Shown here: in pieces, positions 2,616 through 13,238 of the stretch
How the letters are laid out: each line of letters starts with the position of its first letter
Numbering within the stretch: position 1 is the stretch's first letter
Assembly (NCBI GenBank): GCA_963800615.1
Contig: CAWDBO010000037.1
Coordinates: forward strand, 1,152 to 65,151
Length of the DNA: 64,000 nt
Origin: an uncultured Chloroflexia bacterium
GTDB lineage: Bacteria; Chloroflexota; Anaerolineae; CG2-30-64-16
Reading direction: 5' to 3'
Translations under genes and position numbers: made by a program
Notes under the pieces: generated by a model
Databases searched by the model: none
Seen by the model: the letters and a program-made list of their open reading frames with translations, nothing else
What the model was told of the DNA's origin: nothing

Positions 2616-4032
2616 CTAGATGAACTCGGGCAGCCACGTCGCCGTGCGCCTCGATCAGGTCGTCCACCAGGCGCCAGATCTGATCCAGGTCCAGCTCGGC
2701 CGCCGTGTGCGGGTCGAGCATCGCCGCGTGGTACACCGCTTCCCGCTTGCCCGTCAGCGCGGCCTCCACCGTCAGCTCCTGCACGTTGATCTGCGTCCGC
2801 ATGAGTGCGGCCAGGTGCGTCGGCAGGCCGCCGATCCGCGTCGGCTGCACGCCGCTCGCATCCACCAGGCATGGCACCTCCACGACGCATCCCGCGGGCA
2901 GGTTGTCGATCAGCCCGTGGTTCAGCACGTTGCCGTAGATCACCCTCGGCGTGTTCGTCTCGATGCTGTGGATGATCCCCGAGCCGTACTCCATGCTCTT
3001 CTTCGGCTTGTCGAACTCCAGCACCTGCTCGATCGCCTGCTCGATCATCTTCTCCGAAGTCACCGGCTGGCTCCGGAGGAAGTCGATGAACGCCTGGATG
3101 TCGGCGTCCGTGACGTCGTCCGGCCGCTCCATCTGCTTCCGCACGAACTCCCAGCCGGCGATCTGGAACTCGCAGCGGTGGAGGTACTCGTCCAGCGGGA
3201 CGTTGAACTGCTCGAGCAGGTCCGGCCGGTCGCGCTTGATAAACCACGGCACGTACTCCGCGAAGTGCTCGCTCGACTCGGTGACGAAGTACCCCAGCCG
3301 CTTCAGCATCTCGTAGCGCACCCGGTTGTGCTCGGGCACGCGGCCGTCTTCGATCACCTGGCGGATGCGCGGGTACAGGTCCTCGACGCCGCCGTCCGGC
3401 GTGCGGCGCCAGAAGTTCGAGGTAGAACGCCATGTGGTTGATGCCCGCGCAGAGGTAGTGGATTTCCTCGACCGGGACGTCGATGTCCTCGGCCAGGTGC
3501 TCCGCCGTGCCCTGCACGCTGTGGCACAGGCCCGACGTTCTTGATCTTCGTCGCCTTCTGGATCGCCCAGGTGTTGATCGCCATCGGATTGACATAGTTC
3601 AGCAGCCACGCGTCCGGGCACACCTGCTCCATGTCGCGCGCAATGTCGAGGAACACCGGGATGGTGCGCAAGCCCGCGCATGATCCCGCCGATGCCCAGC
3701 GTGTCGCCGATGGTCTGCCGCAGCCCGTACTTTTTGGGGATTTCGAAGTCGACGACGGTCGACGGGCGGTAGCCGCCGATCTGGAACATGGAGATGGCGT
3801 AGTCGGCGCCTTCGAGCGCGGCGCAGCGATCGAGGTGCGTTTCGATCCGGGGGTGCGCGCCGCGGCCCGCGGCCAGGCGTTGCGCTACGTTCTTGGTGGT
3901 GTTCAGCCGCTCCGCGTCGATGTCGTGGAGGGCGATGGTGCAGTCGGCCAGCTCGGGGTAGGCCAGGATGTCGCCGAGGAGGTTCTTGGCGAAAACAGTG
4001 CTTCCGGCGCCGATAAAGGTGATCTTGGGCAT
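2616..4032 (-). CDS. glycoside hydrolase family 4 (NAD/Mn-dependent alpha-galactosidase/alpha-glucosidase type), at least 4 frameshifts
   Basis: N-terminus [23 protein letters not shown] (Rossmann fold). Internal pieces lie in three frames ([34 protein letters not shown]; [13 protein letters not shown]...INHMAFYLE; [28 protein letters not shown]...). The likely true end WLPEFI-stop at 2616 is reached only after a 1-nt shift. Confidence 0.8.
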
Positions 4033-9208: not shown

Positions 9209-11993
9209 CTACGCAAGCTCGGTCAGCCGGTCGCGCAGCCGCGCCGCCCGGCCTTCGAGCTCGCCGAGCTTGTCTCGCTCGCGCGCCACCACGTTCGCCG
9301 GCGCCCGCTGCGCGAACGGGCCCTGCAGCAGCCCCGAGGTGCGCGCGATTTGCGCCTCGGTTTCGGCCAGTTCCTTGGCGAGCCGGTTGCGCTCCGCCTC
9401 GAAGTCGATCAGGTCCGCCAGCGGCAGGTACGTCGTCACCAGCCCGGTCACGAGCGTCAGTGCCTGCGGCGGCGCATCCAGCCGCTCTGCGATCGTCAGC
9501 TGAGCCGGGTCCAGCCGGGCAAGCGAGCACAGGATGTCGGCGTGCCGCTTGAGCATCGGCGCGCGTTCCCCGGCGGCAATACTGGCGTGCAGCGGCTGGC
9601 CCGGCTTCACGTCGTACTCCGCGCGGGCGTTGCGGATCGCGCGCACCATGTCCATGATCTAGCCCCATGTCCGACTCGGCCGCTTCGTCGCGCATGGCGG
9701 TCGCCGGCCACGGCGCGATGATCAGGCCCGCGGGCCACTCGCCTCCGGCATTCCCCACCGCCTGCTTCAGATACCCCCACGTCTCTTCGGTCACGAACGG
9801 GATGTAGGGATGCAGCAGCCGGAGCGACTCGTCCAGCACTTTGATGAGGACGGCCTGCGTGCGCGCCTTGGCTTCGGGCGAACCCCGGTAGATGGCGATC
9901 TTGCTGATCTCCAGGTACCAGTCGCAGAACTCGCTCCAGAAGAAGTCGTAGATCTGGCGCCCGGCCTCGCCGAACTGGAAGGTGTCCATCAGGCGGGTGG
10001 CGTCCGCGAGGGTGGCCGACAGCCGGCTCAGGATCCACCGCTCGGGAAGATCCAGGTTCTGACCTTGCCACAGAGGACTCAGAGCGCTCCGAGGTGGCTC
10101 CGAGGTCTCTGTGCTCTCTGTGGCTGTTCCGTTGCCCAACTGCGACAGGATATAGCGGGTGGCGTTCCAGATCTTGTTCGTGAAGTTCCGGTTGCCCTCC
10201 ACCCGCTGCAGGCTCAGGTTCATGTCGTTGCCCGGCGTCGCGCCCGTCAGCAGCGTGAAGCGCAGCGCGTCCGCGCCCATCGCGGCGATGCCCTCCGGAT
10301 ACTGCTTGCGCACGTAGTCGCTCAGCTCCTCGGGCCGCGCGCCGTCCAGCAGCGCGAGCGGATCGAGCACGTTCCCCGTGGTCTTGGACATCTTCCGGCC
10401 CTGGTCGTCTCTGACGAGGCCGTGCAGGTACACGGTCTCGAACGGGATGTCGTTCGTGTAGAGCAGGCCCTGCATGATCATGCGCGCCACCCAGAAGAAC
10501 AGGATGTCGTAGCCCGTCTCCATCACCGTCGTCGGATAGTAGCGGCGCAGGTCGGGCGTGTCGTCGGGCCAGCCGAGCGTCGAGAACGGCCACAAGCCGG
10601 ACGAGAACCAGGTGTCGAGCACGTCCGGGTCCTGCTCGATGCGCGACGAGCCGCAGCTCTCGCAGCGATCCGGGTCGATCCGGGCCACGGTCGTATGGCC
10701 GCACTCCGCGCAGTGCCAGGCCGGGATGCGGTGTCCCCACCACAACTGCCGGCTGATGCACCAGTCGCGGATGTTCTCCAGCCAGTTGTAATACACCTTC
10801 GTGAAGCGCTCCGGGATGATCTCGATGCGGCCCGAGCGCACCGCTTGCAGGCCCATGTCGGCCATGGGCTTGATTTTCACGAACCACTGCGTGCTGACCA
10901 TCGGCTCCACGATTTCGCCCCCGCGCTGCGAGCGCGGCACCTGTGTACGGTAAGCTTCAACCTTGATCGTCAGCCCCGCGGCTTCCATGTCGGCCCACAG
11001 TTTCTTGCGCGCTTCGAACCGGTCCATGCCCGCGTACGGCCCGCCCGCGGCGCTCACCTTGGCGTCCTTGTCGAGCATCCCGATGATTTGCAGGCCATGC
11101 CGCTGCCCGATCTCGAAGTCGTTCGGGTCGTGCCCGGGCGTGATCTTGAGCGCCCCCGTCCCAAACTCCATGTCCACGTACGTGTCGTGGATCACGGGGA
11201 TGGGCCGCTTGAGGATGGGCACCAGGCACGTCGCACCGATCAGGTGGCGGTAGCGCTCGTCGTCCGGATGCACCGCCACTGCGGTGTCGCCCAGGATCGT
11301 CTCCGGCCGCGTCGTCGCCACCGGGATGTAGCCCTTGCCCGGTCCGTCCTCCAGGTTCGCGCCCGCGATCGGGTACTTGAAGTAGTAGAGGGCCGCGTCT
11401 TCCTCGGTGTACTCCACCTCCAGGTCGCTGACCGCGGTCTGCAGCCCGGGCGACCAGTTGATCAGGTACTCCCCGCGGTAAATCAGGCCCATCCGGTACA
11501 GCCGCACGAACGCCTCGCGCACCGCCTGGCTCAGCCCTTCGTCCATCGTGAAGCGCAGCCGGTCCCAGTCGCACGACGCGCCCAGCCGGCGCAGCTGCCG
11601 CACGATGTGGCCGCCGTACTTTTCCTTCCACTCCCACGTCCGGCGCAGAAACTCGGCCCGCCCCAGGTCCTGCCGGCGCAACCCCTCGCGCGCCAGCATC
11701 TTCTCCACCTGCAGCTGCGTGGCTATGCCCGCATGGTCATAGCCCGGCACCCACAGCGCCGCGTACCCCCGCATCCGCTTGTACCGGATCATCAGGTCCT
11801 CGAGCGACACGAACATGGCGTGGCCCAGGTGCAGCTCGCCAGTGATGTTCGGCGGCGGGATCGAGATCACGAACGGCTGAGCGTCCGGCGGAGCAATCTC
11901 TGGCTTGAAGTAGCCGTTCGACTCCCACCAGTCGTAGATCCTGCGCTCGGAGGCGCTGGGATCGTAGGTCTTGGGCATTTCGAATGATGTCAT
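9209..11993 (-). CDS. valS: valine--tRNA ligase, one frameshift near 9658
   Basis: Class I HIGH motif (PPNITGELHLGHA), KMSKT motif (GRKMSKTTGN), and full-length ValRS-like sequence. The C-terminal coiled coil (ORF 9209..9655, MDMVRAIRNARAE...) is in another frame: ctagatc should read ctgatc. RBS GGAGAGG. Confidence 0.95.
10068..10123. repeat. imperfect palindromic word-repeat (CACAGAG words) inserted in frame inside valS
   Basis: ccacagaggactcagagcgctccgagg-tgg-ctccgaggtctctgtgctctctgtgg. Translated on the minus strand it gives ATESTETSEPPRSALSPLW in the variable loop between NKIWNATRYIL and ERWILSRL. Confidence 0.6.
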
Positions 11994-12029
11994 GATTTCC
12001 TCTCCTGTCTCAACCCGGTGCCGGCCTTG

Positions 12030-12494
12030 TCAGGGATGGTCGTTCGGGTTGTTGGTTGTCAGACCCTCGCCACGCGCTGCCTCGAGCAACTCGCCATTGG
12101 CGCTGATGAAAATCGGCGGACCCGAGGCCAACCGGGCCAGGTCGTTCGCGAGATCCAGCGCCGTTGCGAGATGCAGTGCATCGTAGGCGCGCAGCCCATG
12201 CGCGACCGCCAACTCACCTGCAGCCTTGATTACGATCCGCGACACAGGTGAGGTGTGAACAAGCGCTCGAATGTCCTGATTCAGTTCGGTAATGATCACC
12301 TCGCGCCTCGGCTTGCCGATTCGCTTCTCTCGGTAGGCGCGGCCGAATGCGCTCATGACCTCCACTGCGACGAGTTCGCTGCTAAGAAACATATCGTCTT
12401 CGGCCTGATCCATCAGGTTGTTCATCCAGGTGCTCCCCGACTCCCTCACATACCGTTTGACGAGAGCGCTGGCATCAAGGTAATAAACGGGCAT
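12030..12494 (-). CDS. vapC: PIN-domain toxin VapC
   Basis: 154 aa. YYLDASALVKRY (N-terminal acidic residue), ELVAVEV, and LRAYDALHLATAL are typical PIN motifs. The start overlaps the vapB stop (ATGA). Confidence 0.85.
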   Translation of the reverse strand: MPVYYLDASALVKRYVRESGSTWMNNLMDQAEDDMFLSSELVAVEVMSAFGRAYREKRIGKPRREVIITELNQDIRALVHTSPVSRIVIKAAGELAVAHGLRAYDALHLATALDLANDLARLASGPPIFISANGELLEAARGEGLTTNNPNDHP

Positions 12495-12817
12495 CAGCGC
12501 GGTCCCCTATCTTCGATAATCCACTCTGACAAGGGAACTCCAGCGAGCCATTCCCGTATCTCGTCGAGCGTTGCTGGTTCGACCCCTTCAATCCACGGCA
12601 GCAAGTCACCCGGGTCCGAAAGTTTCCCCGCCTCGCATAAGGCGCGGAGGATGCGCTCCTTCTCGGTTTCAGGCTTCGGCTCCACTCCCAACCCGGAAGC
12701 CAATGTATCAACGACGGCCTGGTTAAGCGAAACATTGTACTCGGCGGCCCGTTCCTTTAGCGCACGGTGCAGCTGCGCCGGCAAGCGTAGGGTTAACTTC
12801 ACACTCTCTTCACTCAT
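12494..12817 (-). CDS. vapB: ribbon-helix-helix antitoxin VapB
   Basis: MSEESVKLTLRLPAQLHRALKERAAEYNVSLNQAVVDTL is a CopG/Arc-like RHH. GGGAGG RBS lies 6 nt before the ATG at 12817; the ORF track starts earlier, at 12841. Confidence 0.8.
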   Translation of the reverse strand: MSEESVKLTLRLPAQLHRALKERAAEYNVSLNQAVVDTLASGLGVEPKPETEKERILRALCEAGKLSDPGDLLPWIEGVEPATLDEIREWLAGVPLSEWIIEDRGPR

Positions 12818-12833
12818 CGTTTCCTCCCGATTT

Positions 12834-12863
12834 GCCACCATAGTGGCATGCCACTATGGTGGC
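12834..12863. promoter_or_regulatory. 30-bp perfect palindrome, candidate VapB operator
   Basis: GCCACCATAGTGGCA|TGCCACTATGGTGGC, located between the T-box terminator and the vapB RBS. Confidence 0.55.
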
Positions 12864-12883
12864 ATCCTATCACGTCTTGCCAG

Positions 12884-12920
12884 AAATAAAAAGACCCTCC
12901 GTCCTCAAGGACGGAAGGTC
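12884..12920 (-). terminator. intrinsic terminator of the T-box leader
   Basis: RNA GACCUUCCGUCC-UUGA-GGACGGAGGGUC followed by UUUUUAUUU. Confidence 0.9.
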
Positions 12921-13204
12921 TCCGCGGTGCCACCTTGGTTGGCATTGCGCGTGCAGTCGGCGGCGCGCGTTGCCCACTCTGCGCTGTAACGGGCTCACCC
13001 GTGGCTGCTTGTCCGATGCGCGTTCGGCACACGTGTGCCACGCACCAACCGGTTCGGCAGCCAGACTCCCCGGCGACGTTCGGCCCTGCTCACATCGGAA
13101 GGGGGCTCGCACCCGGTGACCCCCTCTCTCTGGCGACGGCTACGGCAAGCGTCCCTCGGGACGATTGCCCGGCCTACTCCTCCGGTTCCACGTCTTCTTC
13201 GATT
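12884..13204 (-). promoter_or_regulatory. T-box riboswitch leader, specifier most consistent with GUC (Val)
   Basis: Stem I elements are GGAGGAGUA and an AGAGAG bulge. The specifier loop GAAC-GUC-G places the codon at 13077-13075. F-box CCGUUA is present. The T-box AAGGUGGCACCGCGG (12936-12922) can fold as antiterminator AAGG[UGGCACC]GCGG-AGACCUU-CCGU-CCUU, competing with the terminator. Confidence 0.9.
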
Positions 13205-13210
13205 GGCGCT

Positions 13211-13238
13211 ATTATATCACTTCGCCGCTTACTGTCAA
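13211..13238 (-). promoter_or_regulatory. consensus sigma-70-type promoter driving the T-box leader
   Basis: TTGACA (13238-13233), 16-nt spacer, TATAAT (13216-13211). The -35 overlaps the stop codon of the upstream gene. Confidence 0.75.

Follow-up and report, generated by a model that had tools for sequence, protein, structure and literature searches.

A vapBC toxin–antitoxin module between a valine-specific T-box leader and valS in an uncultured Anaerolineae clade

Are chromosomal toxin–antitoxin modules ever wired to a specific starvation signal? The question is raised by a locus on the minus strand (9209-13238) of the 64,000-nucleotide (nt) stretch of contig CAWDBO010000037.1 analyzed here, referred to as the window. 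In this locus a consensus promoter, a T-box leader with a valine specifier, a terminator, the antitoxin and toxin genes vapB and vapC, a gap of 36 nt, and valS, the gene for valyl-tRNA synthetase (ValRS), follow one another in that order. T-box leaders and VapBC modules are textbook elements; what appears to be new is the nesting of a toxin–antitoxin module between a T-box and its synthetase gene. A preliminary description of this DNA had noted that no T-box–controlled toxin–antitoxin module is known to have been described, and full-text literature searches likewise found no report of such a module under a T-box or inside a T-box operon. The locus offers a natural system for asking the question above and, in addition, for asking how cassettes persist by lodging in essential transcription units.

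The preliminary description had placed all the main elements correctly, and its layout of T-box, vapB-vapC, and valS is borne out. It had further proposed that readthrough triggered by uncharged tRNA-Val would co-induce vapBC and ValRS. Part of this proposal stands, as there is no stop between the T-box terminator and valS. The other part needs revision, as a conserved promoter and operator lie ahead of vapB and the module is not simply controlled by the T-box. The locus is best read as an operon with two promoters in series, in which readthrough from the T-box would have to cross vapBC to reach valS. We assign this reading a probability of about 0.7.

The valine T-box leader and the internal promoter region

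The leader of ~320 nt upstream of vapB has, as judged from its sequence, the features of a transcriptional T-box (Table 1). The covariance search that the preliminary description had suggested as a check of the leader gave a significant full-length match to RF00230 at 13199-12904 (62.9 bits, model positions 1-219/219), with E-values of 2.8e-13 in a local search and 2.7e-11 over the whole 64-kb window. This was the only RNA family match in the window in a permissive Rfam scan. The leader falls short of the Rfam gathering score of 93 bits because of long GC-rich insertions in its stems, and a scan of the window at that threshold gave no match. The T-boxes of this GC-rich clade lie mostly under the threshold (62.9 bits in the window and 69.5-105 in relatives versus 93), and standard annotation would overlook many T-boxes of these GC-rich Chloroflexota.

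The motifs that had been named in the leader (GGAGGAGUA, AGAGAG, CCGUUA, and AAGGUGGCACCGCGG) can all be read in its sequence. The assignment of GUC as the valine specifier, with valS downstream, was supported by the model alignment and by the conservation of GAA-(N)-GUC-G in most related Anaerolineae valS leaders, in which only N varies. The bulge expected to bind the tRNA acceptor end reads UGGC in the window and in relatives L001, L002, L004, and L161, and UGGU in most other Anaerolineae valS leaders. The UGGC form would imply a different discriminator base in tRNA-Val or a tolerated mismatch. The 64-kb window contains neither a tRNA gene nor a second ValRS gene.

The promoter ahead of the leader (P1), previously recognized at 13238-13211, matches the consensus at 12 of 12 positions and has a counterpart in relatives L001, L002, L161, L110, and L084. 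At the other end of the leader, the terminator stem (12923-12890) consists of 15 pairs including G-U, rather than the 12 bp first described, and is followed by a T tract (-27.4 kcal/mol, z-score -4.6). The antiterminator helix is the consensus of the alignment and competes with the terminator, the two being mutually exclusive. When RNAalifold was applied to the 3′ portions of 18 leaders, the invariant antiterminator was the only structure obtained, with no compensatory pairs. The terminator arms vary by lineage with pairing kept, as seen by eye in a gapped alignment (GAGACC/GGUCUC, AGCGCC/GGCGCU, and AGUGCC/GGCACU).

A terminator scan of the region found this to be the single terminator on the minus strand between P1 and valS. 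The 36-nt gap between vapC and valS had been described as free of a hairpin followed by a U-tract, and both scan and fold agree, with no terminator and no significant structure in the gap (z 0.21). The corresponding spacers of relatives range from 14 to 233 nt and also lack a stem followed by a T tract, as judged by eye and, for L110, L084, and L091, by a tool scan. As the module has no terminator of its own, vapBC would have to be co-transcribed with valS. Many of the relatives' spacers are filled with tandem repeats of 7-8 nt (L091 at 3462-3650, L003, L006, L082, L086, L087, L088, and L123), for example GCGAATC[AG] in up to ~15 copies, or arrays of ACGCAAT or ACGTTTC; the spacer of the window has no tandem repeats.

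A stretch of 67 nt separates the terminator from the start codon of vapB, and here a candidate promoter (P2) and operator had previously been overlooked. The -35-like element of P2 in the window overlaps the T tract of the terminator. At the homologous position in the other loci the -10 hexamer reads TATGAT, TATACT, TATTAT, TAAGAT, or TAGGAT, with GCCAC/GTGGC repeats always following after a few bases. In eight loci it is combined with a good -35, namely TTGAC[ACG]-17 in L081, L084, L109, L110, L123, L136, and L143, and TTGAAA-17-TATACT in L003. In L110 and L084, the promoter scan found two promoters each, one ahead of the T-box (12/12) and one in the interval between terminator and vapB (10/12).

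The repeats themselves follow the pattern GCCACNNNNGTGGC (GCCAC-N4-GTGGC), which has two matches in 64 kb, both at the candidate operator, where 0.26 would be expected. They are conserved at the homologous position in all homologous loci (~20). The predicted sites thus provide the module with a promoter of its own and an overlapping inverted-repeat operator. An autoregulated promoter with operator repeats is the usual anatomy of type II toxin–antitoxin modules. The conserved -10 and operator downstream of the terminator argue that vapBC is not driven only by the T-box.

Table 1. Positions of the elements of the valS locus in the window
Feature	Positions	Strand	Basis
P1, sigma-70 consensus promoter TTGACA-16-TATAAT	13211..13238	-	promoter scan, 12/12 matches, TG before -10
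T-box leader (Stem I with specifier loop, Stem III, T-box sequence, antiterminator)	12904..13199	-	RF00230
Specifier codon GUC (Val) within GAA-C-GUC-G	13075..13077 (motif 13081-13074)	-	sequence and model alignment
T-box sequence AAGGUGGCACCGCG with tRNA acceptor-binding bulge UGGC	12923..12936 (bulge 12928-12931)	-	sequence and RF00230 alignment
Intrinsic terminator: stem of 15 pairs with UUGA loop, followed by UUUUUAUUU	12884..12923	-	terminator scan and fold
P2, candidate internal vapBC promoter: TTTTTA (12892-12887), 17-nt spacer, extended -10 TGaTAGGAT (12872-12864)	12864..12892	-	read from sequence
Candidate VapB (ribbon-helix-helix) operator: adjacent inverted repeats GCCACCATAGTGGC and GCCACTATGGTGGC	12834..12863	-	motif search, conservation
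vapB, 107-aa antitoxin, N-terminal ribbon-helix-helix, C-terminal toxin-binding tail	12494..12817	-	Pfam
vapC, 154-aa PIN-domain toxin	12030..12494	-	Pfam, AlphaFold2
vapC-valS spacer, 36 nt, valS ribosome-binding site GGAGAGG	11994..12029	-	terminator scan, fold
valS, valyl-tRNA synthetase, start ATG 11993	9209..11993	-	Pfam tRNA-synt_1, Anticodon_1, Val_tRNA-synt_C

The gene pair and its distribution among relatives

The locus was compared with two sets of sequences, 80 related genomes around valS and the 80 best metagenome hits of a VapC alignment scan. ValRS assigns the window to the Anaerolineae (Chloroflexota), and the nearest genomes are uncultured metagenome-assembled genomes (MAGs), with ValRS identities of 82-86% in the best tblastn segment and 85-89% over 605 gap-free columns. 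The ordinary arrangement, with the T-box 66-240 nt upstream of valS, is that of most of the 80 related genomes, including more than 50 Anaerolineae. This recurrence of the same leader shows that it belongs to valS and not to another gene.

The order T-box, vapB, vapC, valS was found in L003, L004, and L006. In L005 and L007, vapC lies directly upstream of valS and the contigs end before the leader would be reached. The vapC of L007 (27-481) is matched in three reading frames; its apparent frameshifts would reflect either a pseudogene or errors of sequencing or assembly. The closest VapC relative, P0002 (75% identical), is encoded on L161-L163, and L161 has a layout identical to that of the window; the contig of P0003 agrees in gene order over the part of the locus that it covers. 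Eighteen metagenome contigs with this type of VapB all have the T-box upstream and/or valS downstream where the contig extends far enough. In total, the layout is present in 5 related genomes, these 18 metagenome contigs, and 4 contigs carrying the two closest VapC relatives (P0002 and P0003). Among the 80 best metagenome hits, this VapB/VapC subfamily occurs only at the valS locus, and distant VapC homologues (below ~43% identity, with other antitoxins) occur in unrelated contexts.

The cassette, that is, vapBC with its promoter and operator, is absent from L001 and L002, which are among the closest ValRS relatives. There the T-box lies 69-74 nt from valS, so that it adjoins valS directly, as in most other Anaerolineae. 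No target-site duplications or cassette remnants were seen at the L001/L002 junctions. In the ValRS tree, L001 and L002 group with the cassette-bearing L003 (88.5% bootstrap), which indicates that presence and absence of the cassette vary within the clade. This is the only usable grouping, as the deeper branches have bootstrap values of 6-54%, and the number of cassette losses is uncertain for this reason. The GC content of vapBC is 0.565-0.605 versus 0.65-0.72 in the flanks, a difference that the preliminary description had pointed out. Both this and the close relatives without vapBC bear out its view of vapBC as a secondary insertion.

In other Anaerolineae, unrelated genes stand between a Val-specifier T-box and valS (L014, L024, L074, and L077; L023 and L026; L033, L037, and L038; L021, L029, and L053; L040; L043). 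These intervening genes encode an S-adenosylmethionine (SAM) methyltransferase, a PhzF-like protein, an alpha-amylase, a second class-I aminoacyl-tRNA synthetase (~31% identical to ValRS), an acetamidase, and an alpha/beta hydrolase. Their presence indicates that the site between T-box and valS is permissive and suggests that the valS leader has taken up insertions repeatedly.

Both genes of the module are under purifying selection, as shown by ratios of nonsynonymous to synonymous divergence (dN/dS) of 0.07-0.2 for vapB and 0.1-0.25 for vapC in closer pairs and by open reading frames that have kept their length. As a rule, synonymous divergence (dS) between two loci is much greater for the cassette than for the valS next to it, for example ~1.2 versus 0.54 for L003/L006 and 1.0 versus 0.16 for L110/L136. 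Identities can be mosaic, as in L136/L139 (VapB 63%, VapC 85%, ValRS 98%), and L123 carries two tandem vapB genes of different allele types (166-501 and ~550-879) before a single vapC. The excess dS, the mosaic identities, and the spare vapB are read as signs that cassette alleles have been exchanged by recombination between conserved flanks.

The T-box has been retained beside the cassette. It is full length, with scores of 76-105 bits, in 12 of 12 scanned cassette-bearing relatives, compared with 69.5 bits in L001 and 89.3 bits in L002. That it has not decayed in cassette-bearing loci argues for a continuing importance of readthrough, which has to pass through vapBC on its way to valS. Selection would keep a Val-specific T-box ahead of vapBC-valS only if transcripts that read through it arrive at valS. 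Moreover, the vapC-valS spacer is only 14 nt in L109, L110, and L143, which leaves no room for an independent valS promoter. Judging from these sequences, the nesting is a stable, selected arrangement of a clade and no one-off.

The earlier identification of a ribbon-helix-helix (RHH) vapB and a PIN-domain vapC agrees with the Pfam matches and with a predicted VapC/FitB-like fold. VapB matches the Pfam families HicB (2.4e-7) and FitA-like RHH (1.9e-4) and, in NCBIfam, the YlcI/YnfO N-terminal domain with 25.4 bits, under the 30-bit cut-off; its orthologues are 54-66% identical. The vapB gene has a ribosome-binding site GGGAGG at 12828-12823, and its stop codon overlaps the vapC start by 1 nt in the sequence TGATG, not ATGA as initially described. 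VapC matches the PIN family (PF01850, E-value 3.4e-9) and no named family in NCBIfam. Its AlphaFold2 model has a predicted local distance difference test (pLDDT) score of 96.2, and the top PDB matches by Foldseek are PAE0151, P. horikoshii VapC4, and FitB (probability 1.00). The PDB neighbors include VapCs that cleave tRNA and VapCs that cleave the sarcin–ricin loop (SRL). Many VapC toxins cleave tRNAs.

The VapC of the window has an incomplete active site. Residues D7, E45, and D105 are present and invariant among homologues. The fourth carboxylate, just after strand S4, is replaced by N133, where 104 of 105 homologues have Asp, including the nearest relatives P0002 and P0003; codon 133 is AAT (12096-12098) in the window and GAT in the closest relative, L161. 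The orthologues of relatives thus carry all four carboxylates and the window copy does not. As N133 replaces a near-invariant catalytic Asp, the toxin of this genome is probably attenuated or dead. With the exception of this incomplete active site, the sequence and predicted structure identify the gene pair as a VapBC/FitAB-type module.

The valS gene of the window contains an apparent 1-nt insertion at ~9659-9661 (GGGCT-A-GATCATG), where the tblastn match changes from frame 2 to frame 3. This frameshift at ~9660, which had been missed, puts the last ~150 aa (the tRNA-binding arm, Val_tRNA-synt_C) into the frame of an open reading frame at 9209-9655. It could stem from an error of assembly, or valS could be a pseudogene or a split gene here.

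Proposed mechanism and alternative explanations

A two-promoter operon of this kind may have arisen and may work as follows. The ancestor of one uncultured Anaerolineae clade would have gained a vapBC cassette that brought its own promoter and operator and landed in the 5′ leader of valS, between the terminator of the valine T-box and the valS ribosome-binding site. P1 would make the T-box leader. With charged tRNA-Val, transcription would end at 12890-12884. Pairing of uncharged tRNA-Val(GAC) with the specifier GUC and with the bulge UGGC would let the antiterminator form, and the polymerase would continue through vapB, vapC, and valS as one mRNA. P2 would independently transcribe vapB-vapC-valS and would be repressed by VapB or VapBC bound to the GCCAC-N4-GTGGC repeats. 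Valine limitation would then raise vapBC mRNA along with valS mRNA, with vapBC not being dependent on the T-box. For its part, valS would gain in P2 a basal promoter that is independent of the T-box and repressible by VapB or VapBC. The most economical evolutionary view is that of an addictive, recombining cassette lodged where imprecise deletion damages an essential gene.

Co-induction of vapBC with valS is likely under this scheme. That valine starvation activates the toxin is speculation. Translation of vapB and vapC is coupled (TGATG), so that extra mRNA would raise both proteins and does not free the toxin by itself. A real wiring of starvation to the toxin is quite improbable.

Several points weigh against the two-promoter operon. 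First, all relatives are uncultured MAGs or metagenome contigs, and the operon is a prediction from sequence. Second, the P2 of the window (TTTTTA-17-TGaTAGGAT) is a weak match that was missed by the promoter scan, and this copy may be weak because of its poor -35 TTTTTA. Third, the operator as RNA can form a 14-pair hairpin (-28.7 kcal/mol, z -4.6) with a possible effect on readthrough transcripts, and VapB bound to the operator could block polymerases coming from P1. Fourth, the excess dS of vapBC could result partly from codon-usage constraint on valS and not from recombination. Finally, N133 and the valS frameshift may indicate a decaying copy of the locus or assembly errors.

The alternative that survives best is that vapBC is a neutral or selfish passenger, a mobile addiction cassette in a permissive spot that is kept by addiction and by the harm of imprecise deletion, its co-transcription with valS having no adaptive meaning. 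An addictive cassette that separates an essential gene from the regulated promoter of that gene is difficult to shed unless it is excised precisely or the locus recombines with a cassette-free allele. The unrelated genes that other Anaerolineae hold at the same site show that insertions are tolerated there, and the variable presence of the cassette within the clade, the turnover of its alleles, the spare vapB copy, and a GC content lower than that of the flanks all suit a passenger. It is less easily reconciled with purifying selection on both genes across deep divergence or with the restriction of the subfamily to valS among the 80 best metagenome hits, as a freely mobile cassette would be expected elsewhere too. 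We consider that this explanation has somewhat less than an even chance. It fits the data equally well and overlaps with the two-promoter operon, from which it differs only on whether the linkage was put to use.

A stronger claim is that the T-box is the operative controller of vapBC, with uncharged tRNA-Val inducing the toxin module together with ValRS and so linking valine charging to growth arrest. The lack of a terminator between the T-box and valS, the retention of the T-box in all scanned cassette-bearing lineages, the conservation of the layout in ~28 contigs, and the tRNA- and SRL-cleaving neighbors of VapC speak for such control. However, the conserved promoter and operator past the terminator would allow expression and autoregulation without the T-box, translational coupling means that more mRNA raises toxin and antitoxin alike, and L001 and L002 live without the module. 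We consider this claim unlikely.

Still less likely, in our estimate, is that the module has been co-opted into the control of valS. In that case the operator would gate both P2 and the readthrough from P1, and VapC with D133 would cleave tRNA-Val or another translation RNA, giving mutual feedback. If this were true, a riboswitch that senses tRNA and a toxin that targets tRNA would belong to a single regulatory circuit.

That a separate promoter within the vapC-valS spacer drives valS, leaving the T-box to regulate vapBC alone and valS uncoupled from it, is hardly credible: the promoter scan offers a weak match (TTGAGA-18-CATCAT, 12013-11984, 9/12), but the 14-nt spacers of L109, L110, and L143 are too short for a promoter, and a Val-specific T-box kept for a toxin–antitoxin pair alone has no rationale. 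The match at 12013-11984 was itself rejected, as its -10 lies inside the coding sequence, downstream of ATG 11993, and it would yield no translatable valS mRNA.

Comparison with known systems

Compared to the RF00230 T-boxes that precede aminoacyl-tRNA synthetase genes in Firmicutes and Chloroflexota, the leader of the window shares the specifier loop GAA-N-GUC-R, the AGAGA bay and CCGUUA, a UGGN bulge within the T-box 14-mer, antiterminator and terminator helices that compete, and a cognate synthetase gene downstream. It departs from the usual T-box in that ~890 nt, two non-cognate genes, and a second promoter lie between the terminator and the cognate gene. In an early T-box survey, the targets were only synthetase, biosynthesis, and transporter genes, and the Chloroflexi were represented only by Dehalococcoides (PMC2494555).

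The module resembles VapBC and FitAB modules in the RHH antitoxin gene that overlaps a PIN toxin gene, in the palindromic repeats at its promoter, and in the VapC/FitB-like predicted fold. It is unlike the usual members in two ways: its host leader belongs to an essential gene under riboswitch control, and it lacks a terminator of its own.

The nearest analogy found comes from Clostridioides difficile prophages. There, c-di-GMP-I riboswitches, whose ligand is cyclic di-GMP, lie upstream of type I antitoxin RNAs; a second promoter downstream, the stronger of the two, also yields these RNAs, and the riboswitch-associated promoter is dispensable (PMC11477304, citing Peltier et al. 2020). The two cases are alike in placing a riboswitch upstream of a toxin–antitoxin component with a second promoter downstream of the riboswitch. 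They differ in that the C. difficile case involves another riboswitch class and ligand, a type I RNA antitoxin on prophages, and no essential gene downstream.

Among chromosomal type II modules, E. coli relA-mazEF lies in the transcription unit of a gene of the amino-acid starvation response, and a starvation-coupled control of the toxin has been proposed for it. There, the module lies downstream of a housekeeping gene and no T-box is involved. Unlike mazEF, the vapBC module of the window separates an RNA sensor from the gene under its control.

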